Shown here: positions 55-64,000 of the stretch, piece after piece
Layout: each line of letters starts with the position of its first letter
Position numbering within the stretch: the stretch's first letter is position 1
Assembly: GCA_964535935.1 (NCBI GenBank)
Contig: CAZHWM010000028.1
Coordinates: forward strand, 26,744 to 90,743
Direction of reading: 5' to 3'
DNA length: 64,000 nt
DNA from: an uncultured Planctomycetales bacterium
GTDB lineage: Bacteria > Omnitrophota > Gorgyraeia > Zapsychrales > Zapsychraceae
Notes under the pieces: generated by a model
What the model saw: the letters and a program-made list of their open reading frames with translations, nothing else
Database searches by the model: none
Told to the model about the DNA's origin: nothing
Translations under genes and position numbers: made by a program

Positions 55-121
55 CTCTATTCTGCACTATTTAACCTTGTTGATTTGTGCATTTTTCACT
101 ATTTAACAAGGTTGATTTGTG
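55..121. repeat. Tandem doublet of 25-nt imperfect palindromes (unit 1 at 65-89, unit 2 at 97-121, 7-nt spacer cattttt, 32-nt phasing). Preceded by ctctattctgca.
   Basis: Read directly: cactatttaaccttgttgatttgtg / cattttt / cactatttaacaaggttgatttgtg. The units differ only in the central triplet (ctt vs aag). Related copies at 8387-8411, 52652-52676, 54117-54141 and 63528-63584. Confidence 0.85.
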
Positions 122-130
122 AAATATAGG

Positions 131-7447: not shown

Positions 7448-8080
7448 CTATCTTCTGCCTCCATGAAAAGTGCCCCTACCACCAAATGATGATATACCCC
7501 CCGAGCTGGCACCCATCCCAAATCTTCCTCTATCTATCTGCCTAAACATCTGCCTTATCTTTTCTCTTTTAGTTTCATCCATATTCCTCCACAATCTTTC
7601 TTTCTTTCGTAAACGTTTTCTTTTCTCCGCAGACATACGTTTAAAACGCCGATATCTCTGTCGTATCTTTTGTTTTTTCTTTTCATCAAGAGCCTCCCAT
7701 CTCTTATATGCCTTACGTAATTGTTTCCTACGTTTCTCGCTAAGACGTTTATATCGAAACCAATTCCTACGTATCCTACGCTTATCTTCATTCGACATTT
7801 GCTTATATTTACGAAACCTCTCTTTTATAATCTTTTTCCTTTCCGGAGAAAGTCCTTCCCATATTTTAAGTCTCTCCCGCAACAGTTCCTTCTGTTTGGG
7901 GCTCAATTTCTCCCACTTCTTATACGCCTCACTTTTCTTTAATTGCTCCTCTTCTGATGTATCTGTGGCAGAACCCAATAACCCTTTTGCAGCATATACT
8001 GTTCTAACCGGATATAATGTCACCAAAATATATAACCCCAAAAATATTATCATATTCTTTTTTAATATCTCTCTACTCAT
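7448..8080 (-). CDS. Secreted basic repeat protein, DUF3106-like (seven 18-aa repeats, Gly/Arg-rich tail)
   Basis: Signal peptide (VYA/AK). Repeats are WEKLSPKQKELLRERLKI, WEGLSPERKKIIKERFRK and five more at exact 18-aa period. The W-x-x-L-S-P-x-x-K pattern recalls DUF3106 proteins found beside ECF sigma factors. Confidence 0.75.
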   Translation of the reverse strand: MSREILKKNMIIFLGLYILVTLYPVRTVYAAKGLLGSATDTSEEEQLKKSEAYKKWEKLSPKQKELLRERLKIWEGLSPERKKIIKERFRKYKQMSNEDKRRIRRNWFRYKRLSEKRRKQLRKAYKRWEALDEKKKQKIRQRYRRFKRMSAEKRKRLRKKERLWRNMDETKREKIRQMFRQIDRGRFGMGASSGGISSFGGRGTFHGGRR

Positions 8081-8081
8081 A

Positions 8082-8327
8082 TTATTCTCCTTTATATACC
8101 CTTTTATCTATAACATCCAAATCTTTTAATAAATCAGGATCTTCTTCTAAGAAATTTAATATTTCCAATAACTCTAAATTTTTTATTACCTCCACATCTT
8201 CCTTCGATAAAATCTCTCCTCTCTGAGTAGGCTTCTTTTTTTCTTTTGCACAAATTCCATCGTAAACTACTATATATTCCATTAAAAAAAACACCAAAAA
8301 AGCTAATATCCAACTAGCTACCTTCAT
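8082..8327 (-). CDS. Small membrane-anchored protein with acidic Leu-rich tail
   Basis: N-terminal hydrophobic helix. Tail is NLELLEILNFLEEDPDLLKDLDVI. Stop lies 1 nt from the start of the next gene. Confidence 0.6.
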   Translation of the reverse strand: MKVASWILAFLVFFLMEYIVVYDGICAKEKKKPTQRGEILSKEDVEVIKNLELLEILNFLEEDPDLLKDLDVIDKRVYKGE

Positions 8328-8386
8328 TAAATTTCCTTTCTTTGAAATGTATTCTCTCTTCTTATCTGAATTTTACCTTTTTTTTA

Positions 8387-8411
8387 CAACTCAAACAAGG
8401 TTGAATTACAA
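8387..8411. repeat. Degenerate single unit of the intergenic palindromic repeat family
   Basis: caactcaaacaaggttgaattacaa shares the aacaaggttga core. Its reverse complement shares taattcaaYcttgtt with the diverged unit at 63560-63584. Confidence 0.5.
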
Positions 8412-8433
8412 AATAAAAAATAAAGATAATAAA

Positions 8434-8955
8434 TCACACATTTGAAAAATCTAGCTTTTCAAGGATATCCATATCTTCTAATAAATCTAAATGTGCAATA
8501 AGGTCATAATTTTCAACCAAATCAATATTATCTAACATATCAATATCAATCCCCTCTTTATTTAACTGAGAAATCACAGCATCATCACTCCCATTACGAT
8601 AACTGTATAAATATAAAGAACCTGTTGCTATAATTATGATTACAAGTGTCACTACTGTTACAGGAAATAAGTTAACACGATATGGAATACCCAAGATATA
8701 TTTTATCTTCCTTAAAATCCTCTCATACCATGTTTCTGACAAAGATAACCTTGTCCAAAAACGAGATATATAGCCTGGTTCAGGTTTAATCCCTTCCCAT
8801 AATGATAATACATTCCATATCTTCTTATCTGCCTCAAACTGTTTATGACATTCAATACATCCCTTAATATGCATAGATATAGCATCTCGCTGTTTATCAG
8901 GCAGACTATCTTCTAGATAAGCAGGTATTAACTGTTTCACCTCATCACAATTCAT
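8434..8955 (-). CDS. Anti-sigma factor (zf-HC2/ZAS type), single-pass, with acidic hexad-repeat external tail
   Basis: HxxxCxxC motif (HIKGCIEC). One TM around residues 96-118. C-terminal tail is IDMLDN IDLVEN YDLIAH LDLLED MDILEK LDF. Immediately downstream of the ECF sigma gene. Confidence 0.85.
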   Translation of the reverse strand: MNCDEVKQLIPAYLEDSLPDKQRDAISMHIKGCIECHKQFEADKKIWNVLSLWEGIKPEPGYISRFWTRLSLSETWYERILRKIKYILGIPYRVNLFPVTVVTLVIIIIATGSLYLYSYRNGSDDAVISQLNKEGIDIDMLDNIDLVENYDLIAHLDLLEDMDILEKLDFSNV

Positions 8956-9012
8956 CTATCAGTCCTCCTATTTATTTTAACACACAACATCAGTAAAAGT
9001 TTCGCTACATTA

Positions 9013-9660
9013 TTAGGATTCCCCTTTCCAATATGAACTCAAAGTATTTCTTAGGTTCTCTCTTGCCCTGCTTAATAATGACTTAACTGCAGAAACTGAT
9101 ATCCCCATAGTAGAAGCTATTTCTTCATAAGAAAAATTCTCATATCTTCGTAAAATAACTGCAATTCTTTGATTTTTAGGTAATAAAGATATAGCAGTTC
9201 TAATTACATCTGTGATTTCTTCCCTTCTAAGATTATGATCCGCTGGCTCAGCATTATCATTCATAACATATGTATAGCCATTCAAATCCTCGTAAATAGA
9301 AGCATCAAGAGATAGTGCGCTGTTATTATTACGCCTAACTTCATTAAGACTTATGTTCCTTGCTATCGTATACAACCATGTTCGAAATTTTGCTTTAGGG
9401 ATATATCTGTTCCCACTATTGTATACCTTAATAAAAACCTCCTGGGTAAGTTCCTCCGCTATATCTCTGTTGTTGGTAAATCTATAAATAAAATTCATAA
9501 CACGGGAGAAATACTTTTTCATAAGATGCTCAAATGCAAATTTATTTCCTTTACTAAATTCTATCATTAGCAATGTATCTGGGTCATCCAAATATGTATC
9601 GGAAGATAATTTTTTTAATGGAGTAGATCTTTTTTTTGAAAAAAGGGAATGGATATTCAT
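9013..9660 (-). CDS. RNA polymerase sigma-70 family, ECF subfamily
   Basis: Region 2 (AEELTQEVFIKVY ... FRTWLYTIARN) and region 4 HTH (FSYEEIASTMGISVSAVKSLLSRAR). Confidence 0.9.
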   Translation of the reverse strand: MNIHSLFSKKRSTPLKKLSSDTYLDDPDTLLMIEFSKGNKFAFEHLMKKYFSRVMNFIYRFTNNRDIAEELTQEVFIKVYNSGNRYIPKAKFRTWLYTIARNISLNEVRRNNNSALSLDASIYEDLNGYTYVMNDNAEPADHNLRREEITDVIRTAISLLPKNQRIAVILRRYENFSYEEIASTMGISVSAVKSLLSRARENLRNTLSSYWKGES

Positions 9661-10441: not shown

Positions 10442-12586
10442 TCAAACACCTGTTGTTGCAAGGCCTCCTTTAGGCTCTGAGTTTTTTAATCTATAAGTCT
10501 TTCTTTTGTGAAATTCCTCTTGTTTGCCATTATTCCATTGCTGAACTGGCCTTAAATATCCAACAACTCGTGAATATACCTCACACTGGCTTTCACAACG
10601 ATCACAAAATTTATGTTCACCAGCTACATATCCACAATTCGGACATATACTAAAAGTTGGAGTAATAGTGAAATATGGAAGCCTGTATCTTTCACATATT
10701 ATACGAATAAGAGATTTTAACCCTGCCGGATCTTCTATCTTCTCTCCTACAAATCCATGAAATACCGTCCCTCCTGTATAACGCGCCTGTAAAGGATCCT
10801 GTATATCCAGGACTTCAAATATATCATCCGAAAAGTTTACTGGTAGATGAGTGGAATTTGTATAAAATGGTTCAGCACCATTACGAAAATCCATTTCATT
10901 TGCACATATAATATCTGGACAAACTTGTTTATCTATCTTAGCCAACCGATATGAGGCACCTTCCGCAGGGGTTGCCTCCAAATTATATATATGTCCTGTT
11001 TCTTCTTGTATCTCAACAAGTCTATTTCTAATGTAATCAAGGACCTTTGCCGCAAACTCCCGACCTTTTTGGGTTGATATATCTTCTCCAAAGAGGTTCA
11101 AACATGCCTCATTCATACCGATTAATCCTATAGTAGAAAAATGATTACTCCAATACTGGCCAGTTCTCTTTTTAATATTTCTTAAAAAGAACTTCATATA
11201 AGGATATAGATTATCTTCAGAGAATTTCTCTAATACCTTTCGTTTGATCTCAAGACTCTCCTTCGCAAGCTGTATCTTTTCTTCTAATTTTTGAAAGAAA
11301 TCCTCCTCACTATCAGCAAGAAAACCTATTCTTGGCATATTTATTGTAACCACACCTATTGACCCGGTTAAAGGAGACGCACCAAAGAGTCCCCCCCCTC
11401 TTTTTCTTAATTCTCTATTGTCTATACGCAACCTGCAACACATGCTTCTAGCATCTTCAGGGGACATATCAGAATTAATAAAATTAGAAAAATACGGTAT
11501 ACCATATTTTGCAGTAACCTCCCAAAGTTTCTCTAACGCAGGATTGTCCCAGTCAAAGTCATGAGTAATATTATAGGTTGGTATAGGAAATGTAAATACT
11601 CTGCCTTTTGCATCTCCCTCACCCATTACCTCCAAGAATGCCTTATTGAGCATATCCATCTCTTTCTGAAATTCCTTATAGGTCTTATCTTGTATCTGGC
11701 CTCCTATCACAACCCCTTGATCTGCAAAATAATCCGGAACTACCACATCCATTGTGATATTAGTAAATGGTGTCTGGAATCCTACACGTGTAGGAACATT
11801 AATGTTAAATACAAACTCCTGTAAAGCCTGTTTTACTTCTTCATAACTAAGATTGTCATAATATATAAAAGGGGCAAGCAGTGTATCGAAATTAGAAAAT
11901 GCCTGTGCACCTGATGCCTCTCCCTGCAAGGTATAGAAAAAATTGACCACCTGCCCTAAAGCACTTCTCAAATGTCTTGCTGGCCTAGATTCCATCTTGC
12001 CTGAAGCACCTTTAAAACCACTGGTGAGTAAATCCATAAGATCCCATCCAACACAATAAACACTTATTAATCCCAAATCATGTATATGAAAATCCCCTTT
12101 TTGATGTGCTTCTTTTATTTTAGGAGGGTATATTTTATTAAGCCAATAAACTTTACTTATCTCTGAAGAAACATATTGATTTAATCCTTGAAGGGAGAAT
12201 GCCATATTACTGTTTTCATTAACTTTCCAGTCTAATTTACAAAGATACTGTTCAACAAGGTTAACATTACTTCTAGAACTTATCTCTCTAATCTTCGCAT
12301 GTTGATCCCGATATATAATATAAGCCTTGGCAGTTTTCTTATAGGTAGAAGATAAAAGAACTTCTTCTACTATATCTTGTATCTCCTCAACCGTAGGATA
12401 TCTATCCGTAAACAACTGCTGGGCAAGGTTTAACACCCGCAATGCCAATTTCTTTGCCATAACCTCAGAAAACTCGCCTGAAGCCTCTCCTGCCCGCTGG
12501 ATTGCCCTAATTATCTTCCGGGAGTCAAAATCTTCTTCTTTGCCATTTCTTTTGATAATCCTTGTTAAAACTTCTGTTACTTTCAT
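10442..12586 (-). CDS. nrdD: Anaerobic ribonucleoside-triphosphate reductase (class III), with N-terminal ATP-cone
   Basis: ATP-cone N-terminus (VIKRNGKEEDFDSRKI). C-terminal Zn-ribbon CPNCG...CDRC. Glycyl-radical motif SRVVGYLRP. Confidence 0.95.
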   Translation of the reverse strand: MKVTEVLTRIIKRNGKEEDFDSRKIIRAIQRAGEASGEFSEVMAKKLALRVLNLAQQLFTDRYPTVEEIQDIVEEVLLSSTYKKTAKAYIIYRDQHAKIREISSRSNVNLVEQYLCKLDWKVNENSNMAFSLQGLNQYVSSEISKVYWLNKIYPPKIKEAHQKGDFHIHDLGLISVYCVGWDLMDLLTSGFKGASGKMESRPARHLRSALGQVVNFFYTLQGEASGAQAFSNFDTLLAPFIYYDNLSYEEVKQALQEFVFNINVPTRVGFQTPFTNITMDVVVPDYFADQGVVIGGQIQDKTYKEFQKEMDMLNKAFLEVMGEGDAKGRVFTFPIPTYNITHDFDWDNPALEKLWEVTAKYGIPYFSNFINSDMSPEDARSMCCRLRIDNRELRKRGGGLFGASPLTGSIGVVTINMPRIGFLADSEEDFFQKLEEKIQLAKESLEIKRKVLEKFSEDNLYPYMKFFLRNIKKRTGQYWSNHFSTIGLIGMNEACLNLFGEDISTQKGREFAAKVLDYIRNRLVEIQEETGHIYNLEATPAEGASYRLAKIDKQVCPDIICANEMDFRNGAEPFYTNSTHLPVNFSDDIFEVLDIQDPLQARYTGGTVFHGFVGEKIEDPAGLKSLIRIICERYRLPYFTITPTFSICPNCGYVAGEHKFCDRCESQCEVYSRVVGYLRPVQQWNNGKQEEFHKRKTYRLKNSEPKGGLATTGV

Positions 12587-36175: not shown

Positions 36176-37899
36176 AATAACGAATTCCGCATCAATTTTA
36201 ATAATAACTGCCTGCCAACAAGACATGCATTCTGACTGGACCCGCCATGCTCAAGGAAAATCGAGAAAACAATATCTCTCTTACGACCTTCCGTATAACC
36301 AACAAACCATGCATGATCCTTTTTATGAGCCGAACACTGAACTGTACCTGTTTTACCAGCAACATATAATCCATCAATATCCATTACATGAGCCGTACCA
36401 GAGGCATACGATACAACATCCCGCAAACCTTCCTTTACTATACTAAATATGGATTTATCTATCTTGATATGTCTCCTAAAAGAATATCTATCCACTGCTT
36501 TACCTGCTATAGCCTTAATTACATGAGGCTGTAATTCATATCCATCAGTAGCTATTATGCCCATCATCCTTACTAACTGTAAAGGGGTACATAATAAATC
36601 CCCCTGGCCTATAGAAAAATTTAAGGTATCTCCTATAAACCATCTGCGACCTGAAAGCATTCGTTTGCGCCGGGAAGGGACAAACCCTTTTTCCTCATAT
36701 GGTAAATCTATATGCGTAAGGCTACCTAATCCAAATATCTTTGCATATTTTGTTATAATATCCGCTCCCAATATCATCCCTACATGATAATAATATACAT
36801 TACAGGAATGACACAAAGATTGCACTAAATCCTGCCACCCATGAATATGTGCACATCTAAATTTCCTGCCTCCTATCTCTAAAAATCCTTTACAATTAAA
36901 TCGTGTATGCTTGGTAATTTTATGATTATCAAGCGCTGCTATCGCAACTACGGGTTTAAAAACAGACCCTGGGGAAAAAACACCTTTTATTGCCCTATTT
37001 AAAAGAGGAGATAATGGATCAGAAAACAAACGTGATAATTCTTTTTCATGCTGTCCCCTATTAACAAATATATTCGCATCATAGCCCGGAGAACTAGCCA
37101 TTGCCAGTATCTCTCCGTTTTTTTTATCCATAATAACAATAGCCCCGACATAGCCATTCAGCACATCCTGAGCTATTTGCTGAATGTCACTGTCTATAGT
37201 TAATGTTATATCTTTTCCTTTCCGAGGTTCTTTTATCCCCAACAACCGCACTTGTTGCCCTTTATTATTAACCTCTATCTGCAACCCGCCGGGCTCTCCT
37301 CTAAGATAAGCGTCATAATATTCCTCTACTCCAAGATATCCAACTTCTCCTAAAGGAGTATACCCATATGACTTTAATTTTTCTATTCTATATCGATTTG
37401 GTTTACCAACATACCCTAACAAATGAGCTCCATTACTACCTAAAGGATACCTACGCATAAAACTCTCTTGAATCATAACGCTTGGATAAAGATATTTATT
37501 CTCTTCTATTACAATAGCCTGTTCTCTTGTTATGTGTTCCGCAACTACTACAGGAGCAAAAGGAGCGAACTTACCCATCCTATATCTATGCATCAACACC
37601 TTTTTATCAACCCTCAAAACTTTACTTAAAAAATTAAATAATTTTTTTACATCTTTTATATCCTGCGGTGTAACTGTTATATTATAAGATGTGACGTTAT
37701 CTGCTAATAATCTACCTTTCCTATCCATAATCCTTCCACGTACAGCCGGCAAAGGTACAATTCGTATTCTATTGTTCTTACTCAAATTGTAATAATGATG
37801 CCCTAAAATTGCCTGGACATAAACTAGGTCCGCAGCTATTAATAGAAATAATAAAATTATAATTATACGAATAATCCTGATACGCATCGCTTTAACCAC
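36172..37899 (-). CDS. mrdA: Penicillin-binding protein 2 (elongasome transpeptidase)
   Basis: PBP dimerisation domain plus transpeptidase motifs SVFK, SCN and KTGT. Sits between mreD and rodA. Confidence 0.92.
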   Translation of the reverse strand: MVKAMRIRIIRIIIILLFLLIAADLVYVQAILGHHYYNLSKNNRIRIVPLPAVRGRIMDRKGRLLADNVTSYNITVTPQDIKDVKKLFNFLSKVLRVDKKVLMHRYRMGKFAPFAPVVVAEHITREQAIVIEENKYLYPSVMIQESFMRRYPLGSNGAHLLGYVGKPNRYRIEKLKSYGYTPLGEVGYLGVEEYYDAYLRGEPGGLQIEVNNKGQQVRLLGIKEPRKGKDITLTIDSDIQQIAQDVLNGYVGAIVIMDKKNGEILAMASSPGYDANIFVNRGQHEKELSRLFSDPLSPLLNRAIKGVFSPGSVFKPVVAIAALDNHKITKHTRFNCKGFLEIGGRKFRCAHIHGWQDLVQSLCHSCNVYYYHVGMILGADIITKYAKIFGLGSLTHIDLPYEEKGFVPSRRKRMLSGRRWFIGDTLNFSIGQGDLLCTPLQLVRMMGIIATDGYELQPHVIKAIAGKAVDRYSFRRHIKIDKSIFSIVKEGLRDVVSYASGTAHVMDIDGLYVAGKTGTVQCSAHKKDHAWFVGYTEGRKRDIVFSIFLEHGGSSQNACLVGRQLLLKLMRNSLL

Positions 37900-38360
37900 T
37901 TAAAAACAAATGATGTTACTATAAGCGTGACCCCTAAACGTGGAAGGAAGATATCCTTTATAATACAAACTAATTGCTGTCCTTCTATACTATTTATAAG
38001 ATGGGAACGAAGAATAAAATGTACTAAAAAATCTACAAAACAAACTAAACTGACAAGTAATAACTGAGGTAAGAGGGAAAGAGAATGAAATATAAATCTA
38101 CGTAACAGTACTGTGATATAAAAACATACAAGAAAAGCAAAAATATATTCTCCAAAATTATCAATATCAAATGCATCCATAAAAATACCTGCACAAACCG
38201 CTGAAAAGAGTGCATAAACTCTCTCGGTAAATACAGAGAAAAAGATAACCAATAACAATAACAAATTAGGTGTAGCCCACAATCCAAAGACATTAAATAA
38301 CACAAATTCTGCAACAAAAAAAATAAAAATCAATCCCAAAATTACTAAAAATCTCTTCAT
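37863..38360 (-). CDS. mreD: Rod shape-determining protein MreD
   Basis: About 165-aa, 5-TM protein in the mreBCD position. Confidence 0.75.
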   Translation of the reverse strand: MKRFLVILGLIFIFFVAEFVLFNVFGLWATPNLLLLLVIFFSVFTERVYALFSAVCAGIFMDAFDIDNFGEYIFAFLVCFYITVLLRRFIFHSLSLLPQLLLVSLVCFVDFLVHFILRSHLINSIEGQQLVCIIKDIFLPRLGVTLIVTSFVFKWLKRCVSGLFV

Positions 38361-38551
38361 AGCTAACCTAATTACCTTTAATTTTTTATGCTATTTCACA
38401 AACACATTCAAATACTATAAAATAGTTATCTTGCTTTTTTATACATCAATCAAATTAAAATATTATTTATATATATTTAATTCTATTTTTAAAGATATAT
38501 TATATTATAATAGTTATTATATATAAAAATATTATAAAATATAAAGAACCG

Positions 38552-39334
38552 TTATTTTCGTATAATCAAAACCTCTTCAAGTTGAGAAAAAGAGACTGCT
38601 GGTTGAAGGACATATTCTATATTGGTTCCTGATGGATTTTCTATCTTTTCAACGATGGTTCCTATCAATAAACCTTCAGGAAAAGACAGGCTCAACTTTG
38701 ATGTGATAACCATATCTCCAATCCGTATCTTTGCACCCGGATATATATACTTAACCCTGCATCCCCCTTCTAATGTCCCTGATATCAATACACTCTCTCT
38801 AGACTCTTTAACAAGAGCCGCAACACTAAAACGAGGATCTGTTAACAGAATAACCTTAGCCTTATCTTTACTTACCTCCCCTATCTTTCCAACCACACCC
38901 AAGGCATTTACAACAGGCATACCTACCTTGATACCATCATCTGAGCCTTTATCAATAATTATAATAGAGTTCCATAGTGAGGGTTCTCTACCTATCACAC
39001 TTGCTGTAACTGAGGAATATACAAGCCTTCTTTTAAAATCTAATAGTTTCTGTAATCGGGTATTTTCACGAATAATCTCTTCCATGCCAATCAAACGACG
39101 CTTTAAAGATGCCACCTCCTTCCTGAGCCGCATATACTCGTCAAATGTACGATGATAATATAATATTTTTTTTATTTCAAAGAGAGGAAAAGATATTATA
39201 CGAGCCGGGAAAGAAATTAAACTTATGATTTTAAATTTTATAGATGAAAAATAGCTTGGATGAGATAATAAAAGGACGATAGAAACAAGTAATGGTATAA
39301 AATATAATAAATATCTATGCTTGATTTTAAACAC
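38552..39334 (-). CDS. mreC: Rod shape-determining protein MreC
   Basis: N-terminal TM, coiled coil (ENTRLQKLL) and MreC beta-domains (PVVNALGVVGKIGEV). Confidence 0.88.
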   Translation of the reverse strand: MFKIKHRYLLYFIPLLVSIVLLLSHPSYFSSIKFKIISLISFPARIISFPLFEIKKILYYHRTFDEYMRLRKEVASLKRRLIGMEEIIRENTRLQKLLDFKRRLVYSSVTASVIGREPSLWNSIIIIDKGSDDGIKVGMPVVNALGVVGKIGEVSKDKAKVILLTDPRFSVAALVKESRESVLISGTLEGGCRVKYIYPGAKIRIGDMVITSKLSLSFPEGLLIGTIVEKIENPSGTNIEYVLQPAVSFSQLEEVLIIRK

Positions 39335-51404: not shown

Positions 51405-52625
51405 TTATCTCTTCTTATATACCCTAGGCAGCCTATTACCAAGGCTGCAGACTATCTCATAATTAATGGTATCCGCATATTGCGCAAGTTCATCTGCAGA
51501 TATTTCTTCTTTTCCCTGCCTACCTACAAGAGTGACAAGAGACCCTAATCGTAAACAGCGACTTCCACTATCAAACGATTGTGGCGAAATTATTTTAGAG
51601 ACATCAACCACTATCTCATCCATAGTCACCCTTCCAAGAACAGCACATCTTACACCTTTAATTAAAACATATGCCTTATTAGAGAGACAACGCAGATAAC
51701 CATCATTATACCCTATAGGAATAGTTGCAACAATCATATCCTTCTCCGCAATAAATGTCCTTCCATAACTAATACCCCTTCCCTTTGATATCTTCTGCAA
51801 ATATATCACCTTTGACTTTACACTCAATGCCGGCTTTAATTTTATGTCTTTCCTTAGTCTGGGATGAGGATAAAGGCCATACAACATTAACCCTGGCCTA
51901 ACTAAATTAAGCACATCTGTTCTGTATCCTGCCAACCCCATACTATTAGACGCATGAATAAAGGGTATAACAAAACCACTTTTATCTAAACGCACAACAA
52001 GATTATACAAATCCTTAACCTGTCTTAAAGTAAATCTACGATCTTTATCCGCAACTGGAAAATGTGTATATATACCATAAATAATAAGCCTTCTTAATCC
52101 CATAATCTTACGAATAAAATCATATGCATCTTCATGCCATATCCCAAACCTACCCATCCCTGTATCTACTTGAATATGTATATACACATTACGCCTAATC
52201 TTATAGGCATAACGATTAAGCTCTTCGGCAAAATCAAGATTTGTAACAGTAGGCATTAAACTATAATGGCAAATATCTCTTACAAATATAGGCAATGTAG
52301 TTTCAAATAGTAAAATAGGTTTCTTTATCCCTATCTTTCTTAAACGAACCCCTTCTGATACATTAGACACAGCAAAAGATTCCACGCCTTCCTCATCCAA
52401 CAACTTAGCCACCTCCACCATCCCATGACCATATGCATCCGCTTTAATAACAGCCAACACACCTATCTTATGTTCCTTTGTTTTACTAGGATTATTATGT
52501 CGGGAAGGCAAAAAAAATCTGTTTCTTGAAGCAAGCCTACGTATTTGTCTAAGGTTATATTTGATAGCATCCAGATCTATCTCAGCCCATGTCAAATAAT
52601 CTTCTCTTACGCTCTCTTTTAACAT
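51405..52625 (-). CDS. alr: Alanine racemase
   Basis: PLP-lysine motif AVIKADAYGHG. Catalytic-Tyr region (SYGRTF). C-terminal beta domain. Confidence 0.92.
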   Translation of the reverse strand: MLKESVREDYLTWAEIDLDAIKYNLRQIRRLASRNRFFLPSRHNNPSKTKEHKIGVLAVIKADAYGHGMVEVAKLLDEEGVESFAVSNVSEGVRLRKIGIKKPILLFETTLPIFVRDICHYSLMPTVTNLDFAEELNRYAYKIRRNVYIHIQVDTGMGRFGIWHEDAYDFIRKIMGLRRLIIYGIYTHFPVADKDRRFTLRQVKDLYNLVVRLDKSGFVIPFIHASNSMGLAGYRTDVLNLVRPGLMLYGLYPHPRLRKDIKLKPALSVKSKVIYLQKISKGRGISYGRTFIAEKDMIVATIPIGYNDGYLRCLSNKAYVLIKGVRCAVLGRVTMDEIVVDVSKIISPQSFDSGSRCLRLGSLVTLVGRQGKEEISADELAQYADTINYEIVCSLGNRLPRVYKKR

Positions 52626-52651
52626 ATAATTATCCTGATAATTTCTATCCT

Positions 52652-52676
52652 ACACAATTTAACCTTGTTGATTTGT
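52652..52676. repeat. Single unit of the intergenic palindromic repeat family
   Basis: cacaatttaaccttgttgatttgtg is 24/25 identical to unit 65-89. It is preceded by ctatcctacac (compare ctattctgcac). It lies 5 nt after the stop of the upstream gene. Confidence 0.8.
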
Positions 52677-52680
52677 GCAA

Positions 52681-52908
52681 TTAACGTTCAATCAATGCAA
52701 TAAGTCTATTTTTAGAAAACTTTACTACACCCTTTCTTATAGGATACGGAGTATTATCTATAAAGATACTTCCCTCCCGAAGTAAACTAATTATATCATG
52801 ATGAAACTCTAACACCTCAAATTCTCCAGTCTCCCCGGGAAGTATAACCGAAGATGCCTCTCCATCAAAAACGATTTCATTAGGAGCAACTATTAAAACT
52901 GAAAACAT
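52681..52908 (-). CDS. Stand-alone ATP synthase epsilon (AtpC) N-terminal beta-sandwich-like protein
   Basis: 75 aa. The pattern VLIVAPNEIVFDGEASSVILPGETGEFEVLEFHHDIISLLREGSIFI parallels the F1 epsilon N-terminal domain. No C-terminal helical hairpin and no atp genes nearby. Confidence 0.6.
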   Translation of the reverse strand: MFSVLIVAPNEIVFDGEASSVILPGETGEFEVLEFHHDIISLLREGSIFIDNTPYPIRKGVVKFSKNRLIALIER

Positions 52909-52911
52909 ACT

Positions 52912-53592
52912 TTACCCTCTAACCTGACAATCTGCTGAATATAAATATAATGGGCTTAATTTGAACGGATTATCATAATCCTGCTTATTAAATCTCTCTG
53001 TTGCTAATATTGCCAAACATCGTGCAGAAGGCTTCCAAAACTTTTCATCTGCAAACCTTATAGCTACACCCATATTAACATCAGTAAACCATCTTTTTAG
53101 TAAAGGGATACCATCACCCACAAAAATAGTATTATGGGTTATTTTCTTTAACAATTCATCCCTACCTATTAAAAAATATTTGCCCTCTCGCTTCAAATGA
53201 GCTTGCCTTTTACGGTAAAAACCAGTATATAATAAATTCCTTTTTGCATCACTAATTGCACATATCCTAACATCCTCTTCTAATATGGACATAGCAAGAA
53301 TATCCAAACTAGATACTCCAACAATCGGTTTCCCAAGTGCAAAGGCAAATGCCTTAACAGCTGCAATTCCTACCCTTAGGCTTGTAAACGAACCCGGGCC
53401 TAATCCTACAGCAAAGCCTTCGATATCAGACAAAGATATCCCTGCCTTCATCAATATCCTATTAACTTCTGGTACAAGTTGAGAACACAGCCTCCTACCT
53501 AAACTAATATTCCTATACCGTAAAATAGTACTATCATCTGCCACTGCTAAACTCAAAAGGCCTGTCGATGCCTCTACTGCTAATACTTTCAT
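52912..53592 (-). CDS. tsaB: tRNA t6A37 biosynthesis protein TsaB
   Basis: Peptidase_M22-like fold without metal site (VLAVEASTG ... GLGPGSFTSLRVG). Confidence 0.88.
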   Translation of the reverse strand: MKVLAVEASTGLLSLAVADDSTILRYRNISLGRRLCSQLVPEVNRILMKAGISLSDIEGFAVGLGPGSFTSLRVGIAAVKAFAFALGKPIVGVSSLDILAMSILEEDVRICAISDAKRNLLYTGFYRKRQAHLKREGKYFLIGRDELLKKITHNTIFVGDGIPLLKRWFTDVNMGVAIRFADEKFWKPSARCLAILATERFNKQDYDNPFKLSPLYLYSADCQVRG

Positions 53593-54077
53593 ATATCTGT
53601 CCTTCTCTTTACTCTCCTTTTAAAAAGAGAAGATAACATCACTTCATACCGTTTCCCTAACGCTCTGATTTTAATCAAACGAATATCTCCTTGTTGATAA
53701 AAAATTTCTATGTCTAGATGTTCTGCCGGCAACACGTTTCCCAGTCGCTGTGGCCATTCTATCACAGAAATACCTTCACCATAAAAAAAATCATCATAAC
53801 CCACAAAACTCATCTCATCATCTTCATTCATACGGTAAAAATCAAAATGATATAAAGGCAATCTACCTTCATACATATTCATCAATACAAATGTCGGACT
53901 CCGAACAATATTAGGATTTATGCCAAGTCCCTTAGCTATACCCTTAACCAGTCTAGTTTTCCCCACACCTAACTCACCTGACAGGCATATAACATCAGAT
54001 TCAATTAATTGGGTTGCCAGTCTTTCCCCAAATCTTATTGTATCTGCTTCACTGCTAGATAAAAACTCCACCTTCAA
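53589..54077 (-). CDS. tsaE: tRNA t6A37 biosynthesis ATPase TsaE
   Basis: Walker A GELGVGKT. SPTF and HFDFYR motifs. Confidence 0.9.
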   Translation of the reverse strand: MKVEFLSSSEADTIRFGERLATQLIESDVICLSGELGVGKTRLVKGIAKGLGINPNIVRSPTFVLMNMYEGRLPLYHFDFYRMNEDDEMSFVGYDDFFYGEGISVIEWPQRLGNVLPAEHLDIEIFYQQGDIRLIKIRALGKRYEVMLSSLFKRRVKRRTDI

Positions 54078-54116
54078 TTACCCCTCAACAATATATAATG
54101 ATGTCAATGCTTATTG

Positions 54117-54141
54117 CACTATTTAACAAGGTTAAATAATA
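54117..54141. repeat. Single unit of the intergenic palindromic repeat family (perfect 8-bp arms)
   Basis: cactatttaacaaggttaaataata. The first 17 nt are identical to unit 97-121. Arms tatttaac/gttaaata are perfectly complementary. Confidence 0.75.
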
Positions 54142-54162
54142 CAATAAGAAGAAATAACTCTT

Positions 54163-55080
54163 CTAAAAGTGTTTATACCCTTTTATCTCGATAGTTTTTT
54201 TCCTCCCTTTTGTATCAAGAATACATATTCTATCCCTATTTTTCTGTGTAATCTCCCCCATCTCATAAAATGAAAACCTATGTTTAGTATCCTTTTTTAA
54301 TCTTGATGCATTATCCACAGAAAGAGTAAAAAGCAACTCAAAATCCTCTCCGTCATATAATGCATGATTAATATTAGCCCCATATCTTTTAGGTATGCTC
54401 TCTTCCCATATAACCGCAGATACCCCACTTTCCTTGCATATATGCCATAAATCCGCAACTAATCCATCAGATATATCAATCATCGCTGTTGGTTTAAATT
54501 TCTTAACTAAATATCTTGCTTCCTCAATCCTAGGCTGAAACCTTAAATGCCATCCTGATTGAAACGCTCTACCCAAGGGCCCAGTAACAAAAATTTTGTC
54601 TGAGACCGATGCCCCTGCTCGCCTAACCAATTCTTTATCACAACCTTCTCCTATTAAAGATATATTTATAACAAATTTATTATGCCTTACTGTGTCCCCG
54701 CCCACAATTGAGATCCCATATTGTTCTGCTGTGTTTAGTATCCCTTTATATATTCTGCGTAAAAACCTCACATCTTCAGAGGCACTTACACCTATAGAAA
54801 TAAGGGCATATCTTGGTAGCCCTCCCATAGCTGCTATATCGCTAATACTGCACGCTATTGCCTTATGACCAATTCGTTCAGGTTGCATATCTTTAGTAAA
54901 ATGAACCCCTTCTATTAGCATATCTGATGTTAGCAAGAGTCTTTTTTTAGAACCTGAAACTGTTACAACAGCAGCATCATCACCTATACCGTTTATAACT
55001 CCAGAAAGTCTGTTCCTTACCTCTTTTTTTATAAGATTAATAAGGCCAAATTCACCTATATCAAATAATCGTTTAGACAT
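54163..55080 (-). CDS. thiL: Thiamine-monophosphate kinase
   Basis: AIR-synthase-related fold. GDDAAV, TSDMLIEGVHF and SISDIAAMG motifs. Confidence 0.9.
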   Translation of the reverse strand: MSKRLFDIGEFGLINLIKKEVRNRLSGVINGIGDDAAVVTVSGSKKRLLLTSDMLIEGVHFTKDMQPERIGHKAIACSISDIAAMGGLPRYALISIGVSASEDVRFLRRIYKGILNTAEQYGISIVGGDTVRHNKFVINISLIGEGCDKELVRRAGASVSDKIFVTGPLGRAFQSGWHLRFQPRIEEARYLVKKFKPTAMIDISDGLVADLWHICKESGVSAVIWEESIPKRYGANINHALYDGEDFELLFTLSVDNASRLKKDTKHRFSFYEMGEITQKNRDRICILDTKGRKKTIEIKGYKHF

Positions 55081-62306: not shown

Positions 62307-62795
62307 CTACTCCTTTTTAACCAATGATACTGATGCAAACGCGGCAATAGCCTCTCCTCTACCAACAGCATCCATCCCCTCTGTGGTAGTTGCCTTTATA
62401 TTCACACATCCTTCTGAAATACCAATAACAGATGAAATATTATCTCTCATTCTATCTTTATAATTAGATAATTTAGGAGCTTGCACCTGTATAATCGTAT
62501 CAATATTACAAACCTTATAACCTTCATCATGCATCATAGCTACTACATCCTCTAAAATTACCAGACTTGATATCCCACGAAACCTATCATCCGTATCAGG
62601 GAAAAATTCCCCAATATCGCCTTTACCAATAGCACCTAAAATAGCATCTGCAATAGCATGAACAAGGACATCTGCATCTGAATGTCCCAAAAGTCCTTTA
62701 TCATAAGGGATTTCAACCCCACCTAAAATAAGGCGTCTACCTTCTTTTAACTGATGAATATCATACCCTATTCCTATCCTTACTTGCATAATCAC
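62307..62795 (-). CDS. ispF: 2-C-methyl-D-erythritol 2,4-cyclodiphosphate synthase
   Basis: [10 protein letters not shown] ... [12 protein letters not shown] Zn/CDP-binding motifs. Confidence 0.94.
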
Positions 62796-63499
62796 TATTC
62801 AGTTTTGTGCAAAAATGATTCTGCTATAACTATATCTTCCTTAGTGGTTATCTTTATATTTCTATACTCACCCATCACTATCCTAACCTTATAGCCACAC
62901 TGCTCCACCATACATGCCTCATCTGTGAACAATCCCCCATCTACATCTAACTGCCTCCCAAACCTAGCATATGCAGCAAGCAATATATCTCTTTTAAAAA
63001 CCTGCGGTGTCTGTGCCTCCCATAATTGAGTTCTATCCAAAGTTTTCTTTACAAACCTCCCACTATTATTATCAACCATCTTTACCGTATATTTAACAGG
63101 AACAGCAACTACAACCGCATCCTCATTATAACACCTACTAATTACCTCATCTATCAATTCAAAACTAACAAAAGGTCTTACTCCATCATGGACCACCACT
63201 ATATCTGTATCCATATCAAGTACTTGCAGCCCATTAAAAACAGACCTCACCCTTACCTTAGCACCAGCAACTACTTTCTTAACCTTATTTATCTTATTAT
63301 TCAACACCGCCTCTTTAGCGTATTCCACCCAATCAGGATGTACAACAAGGATAACACTATCTGTTCTGTTGCTTTCTTCAAATGCCTTAAGACAATATAC
63401 AAACAATGGGATATTATCCAACAAAACAAAAGGCTTTGGGACATCAGCCCCCAGTCTCTGCCCAGTACCTGCCATAGCAATAATAGCCTGTGTTTTCAT
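62795..63499 (-). CDS. ispD: 2-C-methyl-D-erythritol 4-phosphate cytidylyltransferase
   Basis: AIIAMAGTGQRLG P-loop-like motif. VHDGVRPF. ATG at 63499 preferred over the TTG at 63505. Confidence 0.92.
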   Translation of the reverse strand: MKTQAIIAMAGTGQRLGADVPKPFVLLDNIPLFVYCLKAFEESNRTDSVILVVHPDWVEYAKEAVLNNKINKVKKVVAGAKVRVRSVFNGLQVLDMDTDIVVVHDGVRPFVSFELIDEVISRCYNEDAVVVAVPVKYTVKMVDNNSGRFVKKTLDRTQLWEAQTPQVFKRDILLAAYARFGRQLDVDGGLFTDEACMVEQCGYKVRIVMGEYRNIKITTKEDIVIAESFLHKTE

Positions 63500-63518: not shown

Positions 63519-63604
63519 GCTATTCTGCACAAATCAACCTTGTTAAATAGTGAAAAATGCACAAATCAACAAGATTGAATTATGCAATAACACTCTATTC
63601 TGCA
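63519..63604. repeat. Tandem doublet of the palindromic repeat family (units 63528-63552 and 63560-63584, 32-nt phasing), bracketed by direct copies of ctattctgca (63520-63529 and 63595-63604)
   Basis: The reverse complement of 63528-63584 is 53/57 identical to 65-121 (hand count), including a 46-nt exact run. Confidence 0.85.
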
Positions 63605-64000
63605 AGATCCGCAAAGATTATCCTGCCTGCTTGTGTCTGCAATATAGATGTAACTACTATCTTCTTTTCCTGCCCAATAAACTCTCTGGCATTATTTACT
63701 ACTATCATAGTTCCTTCTTCAGTAAATGCTAATGCCTGCCCTTGTTCTTTACCTTCTCTAATAAGTTTTACCAGAAGAGTCTCACCTGTCAAAATAAATG
63801 GTTTTATAGCATTAATCAGTTCTCGTATATTAAGTACCTCCACAGATTGCAATCTTGCTATTTCTCCAAGATTAAAATCTGTTGTACATATCCTGGCATC
63901 TATTAATTTTGCCAAATCTATAAGTTTTCTATCTACATTGCGATCGTCAAACTCTTCTGTCTCTTGTACAGATATATCTACATCAGGGTCTTTTTGCATC
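63595..64000 (-). CDS. PIN/TRAM-domain protein (YacL-like), C-terminal part. The gene continues beyond the window.
   Basis: C-terminal TRAM-like segment (GETLLVKLIREGKEQGQALAFTEEGTMIVV) after a PIN-like region. The frame is open to the window edge. Confidence 0.7.
   Translation of the reverse strand, partial: MQKDPDVDISVQETEEFDDRNVDRKLIDLAKLIDARICTTDFNLGEIARLQSVEVLNIRELINAIKPFILTGETLLVKLIREGKEQGQALAFTEEGTMIVVNNAREFIGQEKKIVVTSILQTQAGRIIFADLAE

Follow-up and report, generated by a model that had tools for sequence, protein, structure and literature searches.

The 64-kb stretch of Omnitrophota contig CAZHWM010000028.1 analyzed here (the window) carries, in the spacers between genes of its minus strand, copies of a 25-nt imperfect palindrome, which occur either singly or as doublets. 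These are considered as candidate repetitive extragenic palindromes (REPs), the doublets as candidate REPINs, i.e. pairs of inverted REPs, and the family as a whole in relation to a putative REP-associated tyrosine transposase (RAYT) encoded on related contigs. In the first doublet the units CACTATTTAACCTTGTTGATTTGTG (65-89) and CACTATTTAACAAGGTTGATTTGTG (97-121) start 32 nt apart and differ solely at the central triplet, CTT versus AAG, as had been reported in a preliminary description of this DNA. The degenerate consensus proposed there has 10 strand-hits in the window, compared with 0.00 expected from 100 shuffles. A covariance model trained on 86 units, all of which come from contigs other than the window, identified, when the window was searched with filters off, six significant 25-nt units at four intergenic sites, and nothing significant within genes; one decayed relic is present in addition (Table 1). 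Complementary flanks add 6-9 nt past the CAC/GTG ends of the cores, so giving the doublets the full extents listed in Table 1. The second doublet matches the first in reverse-complement orientation (67 nt, 90 %), and the 57-mer at 65-121 is an exact match to three doublets on L032, a 99.9 %-identical contig.

All the copies in the window are located, as had been claimed, in short gaps between minus-strand genes, following the stop codon of the upstream gene; the cores lie 3-21 nt after that stop codon, and about 14-35 nt separate them from the next start codon, from which it follows that the element fills nearly the whole intergenic spacer. At 52645..52685 the stop codon of the upstream ORF is inside the right flank of the unit. 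The genes beside the sites have unrelated housekeeping assignments (epimerase; ATP-synt_DE_N mini-ORF/alr; thiL-like/tsaE; PIN/TRAM/ispD). Four of the five loci of the preliminary description are significant by the covariance model, one of them with coordinates that were one base off (52652-52676 there, 52653-52677 here). The fifth, 8387-8411, is not significant alone (E about 8), but is recognized as a relic that has decayed in place because the unit is intact at the corresponding position of L069, a contig orthologous to window 7821-8970 (89.5 % identity). The right arm of the unit at 54117-54141 is partly degenerate, with two G>A changes (plus strand), and its minus strand, as single-stranded DNA (ssDNA), gives a hairpin of -9.5 kcal/mol (z -7.9). 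In this sole case examined, which is anecdotal, the minus (sense) strand keeps G-T/G-U pairs, the DNA hairpins of the two strands being -9.5 versus -7.6 kcal/mol.

Scanning of JGI metagenome contigs with a 25-nt degenerate pattern returned 48 loci, of which almost all belong to metagenome Ga0256914 and to VAPK01, an NCBI metagenome that also holds the alr locus of the window at 99.97 % identity; scanning of the GTDB representative genomes with TTAACMWKGTTGATTTGTG gave 24 single hits in unrelated taxa, i.e. chance level. After removal of redundancy the family comprises 100 units in 63 clusters, these being 35 doublets, 27 singles and one triple, with a unit spacing of 32 nt in 36 of 37 cases. 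The contigs bearing the motif are related and have about 34-46 % GC. Two subfamilies are apparent: that of the window, with CTT/AAG triplets and CATTTTT spacers, on contigs of about 32-37 % GC, and a second, with CTG/CAG triplets and CATWATG spacers, on contigs of about 38-46 % GC. The palindrome commonly reaches 6-9 nt past CAC/GTG, the core of 25 nt becoming 37-43 nt when the complementary flanks are included, and the flanks are of recurrent types (CTATYCTG/CAGRATAG, CTTATTT/AAATAAG, CAAATGT/ACATTTG and CTTATTG/CAATAAG). By inspection, with no formal test, neither a target-site duplication nor a conserved target outside the palindrome is visible at the 63 sites. All 63 clusters are intergenic, none being within coding sequence, in loci where intergenic sequence accounts for 12.4 % of bases. 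The repeats have two of the properties by which REPs are recognized, i.e. a short imperfect palindrome (about 20-40 nt) present in many dispersed extragenic copies, in agreement with the earlier suggestion of a REP/BIME-like family (BIME, bacterial interspersed mosaic element), and also one of those of REPINs, i.e. an inverted REP pair at fixed spacing with doublets predominating (35 doublets versus 27 singles). The loci were collected by exact match to the motif and so are biased with respect to any comparison of conservation between doublets and singlets.

The available evidence favors a single long hairpin per doublet, the architecture of a REPIN, over a pair of small hairpins. The central triplets are complementary (CTT/AAG or CTG/CAG) in 34 of the 35 doublets, and all 12 CTG/CAG doublets are perfect palindromes from end to end, yet have 1-3 internal mismatches per unit. 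When the alignment of the 35 doublets is evaluated as one long hairpin, 89 % of cells are paired and the covariation is 0.167, compared with 0.107 after shuffling, a value that none of 500 shuffles reached; evaluated as two small hairpins, 84.9 % of cells are paired and the covariation (0.112, compared with 0.110 after shuffling) was reached in 215 of 500. Within single units, compensation is lacking at the variable positions (W, W and Y in each arm), and the single-unit model shows no covariation. Both window doublets have the long hairpin as their structure of minimum free energy, whether folded as RNA (-20.2 and -26.8 kcal/mol, z -3.7 and -6.5) or as ssDNA (-8.1 to -11.3 kcal/mol, with -8.1 for doublet 1). 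In the subfamily of the window the arms of both units are direct copies of each other, just the triplet being inverted.

With respect to transcription, the clusters for which both neighbors are known (n=37) comprise 35 between co-directional genes, two between convergent genes and none between divergent genes. The co-directional preference mostly mirrors gene organization, because the background intergenic regions are distributed as 189/20/19 in the same order, i.e. 83 % co-directional; of these figures, just the lack of sites in divergent (promoter) regions is marginally notable (Fisher p = 0.049). The distance from stop codon to core, which the preliminary description had suggested recording together with strand bias, has a median of 19 nt across the family. 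No strand bias toward the better-folding RNA is apparent: the CTT/AAG doublets (n=22) show no preferred orientation relative to transcription, the spacer on the coding strand being [AC]AAAATG in 14 and CATTTT[TG] in 8, and 14 of the 22 present to transcription the less stable strand, with its C-A and A-A mismatches. In a simple scan neither a sigma-70 promoter nor a terminator was called on the window elements; their stems are of about 25-30 % GC and the T-run spacer occurs in either orientation, unlike in an intrinsic terminator. Rfam, at gathering thresholds, has no family in the window.

The preliminary description had also pointed to a RAYT/TnpA(REP) gene as something to be looked for elsewhere in the genome, and a Y1 transposase gene bordered by the same elements is indeed present on related contigs. 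A phmmer search of the six-frame ORFs of the family loci with E. coli RayT gave two marginal hits (E 0.008 and 0.085), and both ORFs (310-325 aa, the protein being of 300-325 aa) are bordered by elements on each side. The gene is so flanked in L059/L078, L036 and L080, which represent three related genomes; it is not in the window. The encoded protein matches the Pfam family Y1_Tnp (PF01797) with an E-value of about 1e-8 (35.9 bits, compared with a cut-off of 23), whereas the NCBIfam IS200 model gives 16 bits, far under the 70.6 obtained with the model REP_Tyr_transpos. The motifs HLH and YIHLNPV show no variation, their residues H94/H96 and Y153 corresponding in the alignment to H59/H61 and Y115 of E. 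coli RayT. Although a search of PDB sequences with the protein gave nothing relevant, its AlphaFold model (pLDDT 83, pTM 0.75) has as its best Foldseek match in the PDB the E. coli RAYT bound to a REP hairpin (4ER8; E 3.7e-6, target TM-score 0.74), with the IS608, ISDra2 and IS200 transposases at ranks 2-27. As modelled, the protein is thus of RAYT type in its fold and its catalytic motifs. It has, in addition, a C-terminal helix-turn-helix (HTH) region, as indicated by weak HTH_23, HTH_7, HTH_28 and GerE matches at residues 285-319, by modelled helices and by the motif ARKFLIEQL...EIA..L.ISR; an HTH motif is conserved at the C terminus in all 46 aligned homologues. From homology and arrangement, and by analogy with the E. 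coli enzyme, we infer that this RAYT-like protein mobilizes the elements described here.

Table 1. Repeat elements of the window, and the RAYT-like genes found with them on related contigs. Positions are those of the window unless a locus is named.
Feature	Position	Structure	Covariance-model match	Setting
REPIN-type doublet 1	57..129	left flank 57-64 CTATTCTG, unit 65-89 CACTATTTAACCTTGTTGATTTGTG, 7-nt spacer 90-96 CATTTTT, unit 97-121 CACTATTTAACAAGGTTGATTTGTG, right flank 122-129 AAATATAG	89-129, E 9e-14; 66-88, E 2e-5	between stop of epimerase gene (131-1459, minus) and start of next minus-strand gene (about 24-29)
Decayed single unit (relic)	8377..8418	8-nt deletion and substitutions		between genes 8082-8327 and 8434-8955 (minus)
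Single REP unit	52645..52685	core 52653-52677	E 2e-10	between 75-aa ATP-synt_DE_N ORF (52681-52908, minus) and alr (51405-52625, minus)
Single REP unit	54109..54149	core 54117-54141, flanks CTTATTG/CAATAAG	E 2e-8	between thiL-like (54163-55080) and tsaE (53589-54077)
REPIN-type doublet 2	63520..63592	units 63528-63552 and 63560-63584, spacer AAAAATG; second unit partly degenerate	63520-63560, E 2e-13; 63563-63581 (second unit), E 0.03	between PIN/TRAM-type gene (63595-63999) and ispD (62795-63499)
Flank 10-mer CTATTCTGCA, extra (third) copy	63595..63604			overlaps stop codon of PIN/TRAM gene, 11 nt from doublet 2
RAYT-like gene	L059/L078 9411-10388			L059 doublets at 9357 and 10370
RAYT-like gene	L036 82-1014			unit at 23, doublets at 996 and 1183

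At E below 1e-3 there are 782 homologues of the RAYT-like protein, those listed being of about 260-340 aa, and most occur on 1-2 contigs. The named homologues are nearly all from Omnitrophota, one being labelled Elusimicrobia and one just 'bacterium'; the named homologues of the window alr (56-61 % identity) are all from Candidatus Omnitrophota/Omnitrophica. Around each of seven more distant RAYT homologues (43-54 % identity), mostly from Omnitrophota, there is a lineage-specific repeat on either side, in most cases a palindrome of about 40 nt. In L082, L085, L088 and L090 the repeats beside the gene end in TGTAAAGTTA, e.g. TAACTTTACACTTTCAACGACGTTCAAAGTGTAAAGTTA, and the repeat of L083, the RAYT locus of which is syntenic with that of L084, has the core ACATTTCAAC-AAT-GTTGATTTGT, with recognizable homology to the window unit.

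The gene for the RAYT-like protein P0001 is on a contig of 91.6 kb in ENA assembly ERZ27262694, an assembly that also holds the 53-kb contig of the window; the P0001 contig is present in VAPK01 as well, and its end falls within the downstream doublet. The doublets of this contig match window 65-121 at about 53-57 of 57 positions, i.e. they are of the same REPIN type. The metagenome-assembled genome (MAG) GCA_054039975.1 has an 84 %-identical RAYT at a syntenic position (secretin-TPR-HisKA-RR-RAYT), its locus holding 12 REP units over 12.9 kb, most of them singles flanked by AAATGT. The kept position, and the occurrence of most homologues on 1-2 contigs, would fit a domesticated transposase. 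Comparison of L078 5798-11016 with L080 1791-7046 reveals REPs in the same intergenic spacers of the secretin-TPR-HisKA-RR-RAYT block, with differences in flank type (CTATTCTG versus AAATGT) and in single/doublet state. Such differences within shared spacers suggest turnover or concerted evolution, rather than passive inheritance.

Several ORFs on the related contigs enter a REP unit and share the REP-encoded tail CTNQPC* (TGCACAAATCAACCTTGTTAA), including those for a response regulator (L059 8620-9375) and the RAYT-like protein of the same locus, with CTNQPG in P0004 (L036); the RAYT homologue of L090 has REP-encoded KIDIVKNVKL at each end. REP insertions thus sometimes replace a native C terminus and its stop codon.

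REPINs have been described as REP doublets that are arranged as inverted repeats forming hairpins, are extragenic, and occur next to a RAYT (PMC3116915), and RAYTs as single-copy, vertically inherited, REP-flanked Y1 transposases (PMC5581495). The window repeats very probably are a lineage-specific REP family of this kind, the doublets being REPINs and the whole a REP/REPIN-RAYT system; the analysis has shown the family, the doublet geometry, the intergenic placement, the hairpin covariation, the element-flanked RAYT-like gene and one decayed copy. The system departs from canonical ones in being without a GT[AG]G foot, in having a 73-nt REPIN, and in having an HTH-bearing RAYT. With respect to mechanism, two inverted REPs 32 nt apart would form one roughly 33-bp hairpin in ssDNA or RNA, and, by analogy with E. 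coli TnpA(REP) and the IS200/IS605 enzymes, a single-copy, vertically inherited Y1 (HUH) RAYT would recognize the folded palindrome on ssDNA, e.g. at the replication fork. Cleavage and rejoining of the palindrome by the RAYT would lead to copies being dispersed and homogenized, and these would persist only where insertion is tolerated, i.e. inside operons, in the short stretch from a stop codon to the ribosome-binding region of the following gene. Operon-internal copies would be co-transcribed and may have a secondary effect on the mRNA, so that an RNA-level role within operons is possible as a secondary function.

Several points weigh against this explanation. Neither the window nor the 9.9 kb following it contains a RAYT gene, and the location of the RAYT contig and the window in one genome, which is likely, rests on their co-occurrence and shared repeat type; the tetranucleotide correlation between the two is 0.93, compared with 0.98-0.99 for self-controls. 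The score of the protein with the NCBIfam model REP_Tyr_transpos (NF047646) is 67-71 bits, under the cut-off of 80. Canonical REPs carry a 5' GT[AG]G foot, and the residues of the E. coli RAYT that contact GTAG have been listed (PMC6006769); neither GTAG nor GTGG occurs at the hairpin foot in the flank types seen here, and the E. coli contact residues (W94, Q95, E100, H101 and R104) are unconserved in the alignment, which agrees with these REPs having no GTAG foot. As regards the hairpin, the covariation shuffles ignore kinship among the repeat copies, and about 6 mismatches are left in the long hairpin of the window subfamily because its unit arms are direct copies. As regards mobility, no transposition intermediate was found, and there were no empty orthologous sites in the pairs L049/L061 and L078/L080, both members being occupied in each case.

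The most substantial alternative in terms of function is that the repeats are RNA elements first, in the sense of long operon hairpins that guard upstream mRNA from 3'-5' exonucleases, serve as RNase III sites or attenuate read-through, the conservation of their sequence then being due to this function and not to mobility. This is quite unlikely as a primary explanation, but it is compatible with a REPIN-RAYT system as an exapted secondary role of REPs. In its favor are the location of 35 of 37 sites between co-directional genes, a few nt past a stop codon, the stability predicted for the hairpins (-20 to -27 kcal/mol; z -3.7 and -6.5), and the substitutions at 54117-54141, which retain G-U pairing on the sense strand. 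The first of these, however, has to be seen against a background in which 83 % of all intergenic regions are co-directional regardless, and the lack of orientation bias, with 14 of 22 CTT/AAG doublets exposing the less stable strand to transcription, is not what would be expected of RNA elements; nor is there an Rfam match or a terminator-like call on the elements, and one copy has decayed in place. An RNA role also leaves unexplained why the elements border a Y1 transposase gene in every lineage examined. The preliminary description had raised a different possibility, i.e. that of tandem operators for a dimeric repressor. In its present form this would mean double-stranded DNA (dsDNA) operators for a dimeric HTH protein, possibly the RAYT via its own HTH, with the units three helical turns apart and bound cooperatively in a genome-wide regulatory or nucleoid network. 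The unit is two-fold symmetric with invariant positions CAC.A.T.AAC, its variable positions are uncompensated within the unit, as half-site recognition predicts, the phase is exactly 32 nt, and the associated protein has a conserved C-terminal HTH. By contrast with what would be expected of operators, the sites are at gene 3' ends in operons with unrelated housekeeping neighbors (alr, tsaE, ispD, epimerase), none of 37 is in a divergent promoter region and there is no sigma-70 call on the elements; complementary triplets and perfect inter-unit palindromes are traits of hairpins, not of independent operators, and the copy number and near-identity, with identical 57-mers at many unrelated loci, fit repeats rather than a regulon. 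The phase itself is that of an inverted REP doublet, in which 25-nt units are separated by a 7-nt spacer. We thus regard operators as very improbable.

It is hardly credible that the elements are ordinary miniature inverted-repeat transposable elements (MITEs), i.e. deletion derivatives of a DDE-type insertion sequence, or chance AT-rich palindromes. They are, it is true, short, terminally inverted, intergenic and multi-copy, in an AT-rich genome (about 34 % GC), but zero chance matches are expected, the covariance-model E-values extend down to 1e-13, no target-site duplication is visible by the palindromic ends, and the only transposase-like gene found adjoining the elements encodes a Y1/HUH enzyme. 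A more far-reaching version of the preferred REPIN-RAYT explanation, which on present evidence is rather unlikely, is that this is an undescribed branch of such systems in Omnitrophota and some neighbors, in which the Y1 enzyme gained an HTH, the HUH core acting on the palindrome as ssDNA and the HTH docking to palindromes as dsDNA; the hundreds of phased sites would then constitute a nucleoid-organizing, protein-binding or operon-internal regulatory network, going beyond selfish repeats.

Comparison with characterized systems reveals both likenesses and differences. As in the REPIN-RAYT systems of Pseudomonas and Enterobacteria (Bertels & Rainey 2011, PMC3116915; Bertels et al. 2017, PMC5581495), there are inverted doublets at fixed spacing, forming one hairpin with compensatory changes, there are singlets and decayed copies, and the repeat-flanked Y1 gene is syntenic between species. 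However, the spacing here is 32 nt, with a total of about 73 nt, compared with spacings of 71-110 nt there; the elements are AT-rich and the host belongs to the Omnitrophota, rather than the Gammaproteobacteria; the RAYT is twice as long, with a C-terminal HTH; and, in the window subfamily, the unit arms are direct copies, the loop triplet alone being inverted. With the E. coli REP/BIME and TnpA(REP)/RayT system (4ER8; Messing et al. 2012, PMC3479197) are shared the HUH/Tyr core, the fold, the HxH and Y-I-x-x-N-P-V motifs, and the occurrence of palindromes after stop codons within operons. By contrast, there is here no 5' GTAG guide tetranucleotide, the flanks being CTATYCTG, CTTATTT, CAAATGT or CTTATTG, the identity to E. 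coli RayT is 18 %, and the protein is under the NCBIfam equivalog cut-off.

In TnpA(Y1) subclass 2.1 the Y1 core is followed by a C-terminal HTH (Bac_DnaA_C, HTH_23 or HTH_28), and a survey reported no REP-like sequences near subclass 2.1 genes and, for the inverted repeats of the related TIRYTs, the consensus GGGG[AT][CG]A[CG] (Quentin et al. 2018, PMC6006769). The present protein similarly combines a Y1 core with an HTH_23/HTH_28/HTH_7-like C-terminal domain and has a serine motif after the tyrosine (YRWSS), a likeness that is one of architecture; its gene, however, is bordered by dispersed AT-rich palindromes of unrelated sequence and not by the TIRYT motif. The TnpA enzymes of the IS200/IS605 family (IS608, ISDra2) have the same fold and, presumably, the same chemistry on ssDNA hairpins, but the gene here does not lie between distinct left and right ends, no tnpB is present in the loci seen, and the genomic position is kept between species.

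Other features of these loci may be recorded. The 75-aa ORF at 52681-52908 (minus), located between tsaB and alr and distant from any ATP synthase genes in the window, encodes just the epsilon-subunit N-terminal domain of ATP synthase (PF02823) and is kept on every contig bearing this locus. In L082 4811-9603, from the 54 %-identical lineage, the RAYT-like gene and its palindromes are located within an F-type ATP synthase operon, with the delta (OSCP) gene on one side and the c-subunit gene on the other. In L068 two REP copies enclose 2.4 kb that contains ispE and spoVG together with a gene for an XRE-type HTH protein and a fragment of a methylase gene, and no transposase gene. At 83-123 and 2521-2561 of L068 the REP unit, together with the start of the 66-aa XRE-type HTH gene, forms a direct repeat of >100 nt around the truncated DNA methylase, ispE and spoVG, which may reflect a duplication or an assembly chimera.

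Within the window, the extra copy of the flank 10-mer CTATTCTGCA at 63595-63604 may have been left by an older element or mark a preferred target; by itself the 10-mer shows no statistical enrichment. Two matches were rejected: one to TTAACCTTGTTGA, a lone 13-mer with no arms inside the ORF at 12252, and a weak covariance-model match at the ispF/ispD junction (62779-62817, E 0.07). The latter region contains TGCATAATCAC and GTGCAAAAATG, which resemble REPIN spacers; the match may be a very old relic or due to chance. Between ORFs 37863-38360 and 38552-39334 lie AT-rich, overlapping 56-nt inverted repeats (38457-38558, 71 % complementary), the sequence of which is unrelated to the REP family.

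In a full-text literature search, no paper joining Omnitrophota with the terms REP, RAYT, REPIN or IS200 was present among the 15 matches listed, those with the most terms being ranked first. Among replicators that persist for long periods within bacterial genomes by vertical inheritance, REPIN-RAYT systems are the best example and, to our knowledge, have been characterized almost only in Gammaproteobacteria, with GTAG-tagged REPs and RAYTs of about 160 aa. The present finding extends the REPIN-RAYT partnership to an uncultivated phylum, with a REPIN that is unusually compact, and ties dispersed palindromes to an HTH-bearing class of Y1 enzyme that has been reported without REP association (PMC6006769). 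It thereby provides a concrete substrate for probing the role of HTH-bearing Y1 enzymes. The model also enables those annotating Omnitrophota MAGs to recognize repeats that break assemblies, the RAYT contig itself ending in one.

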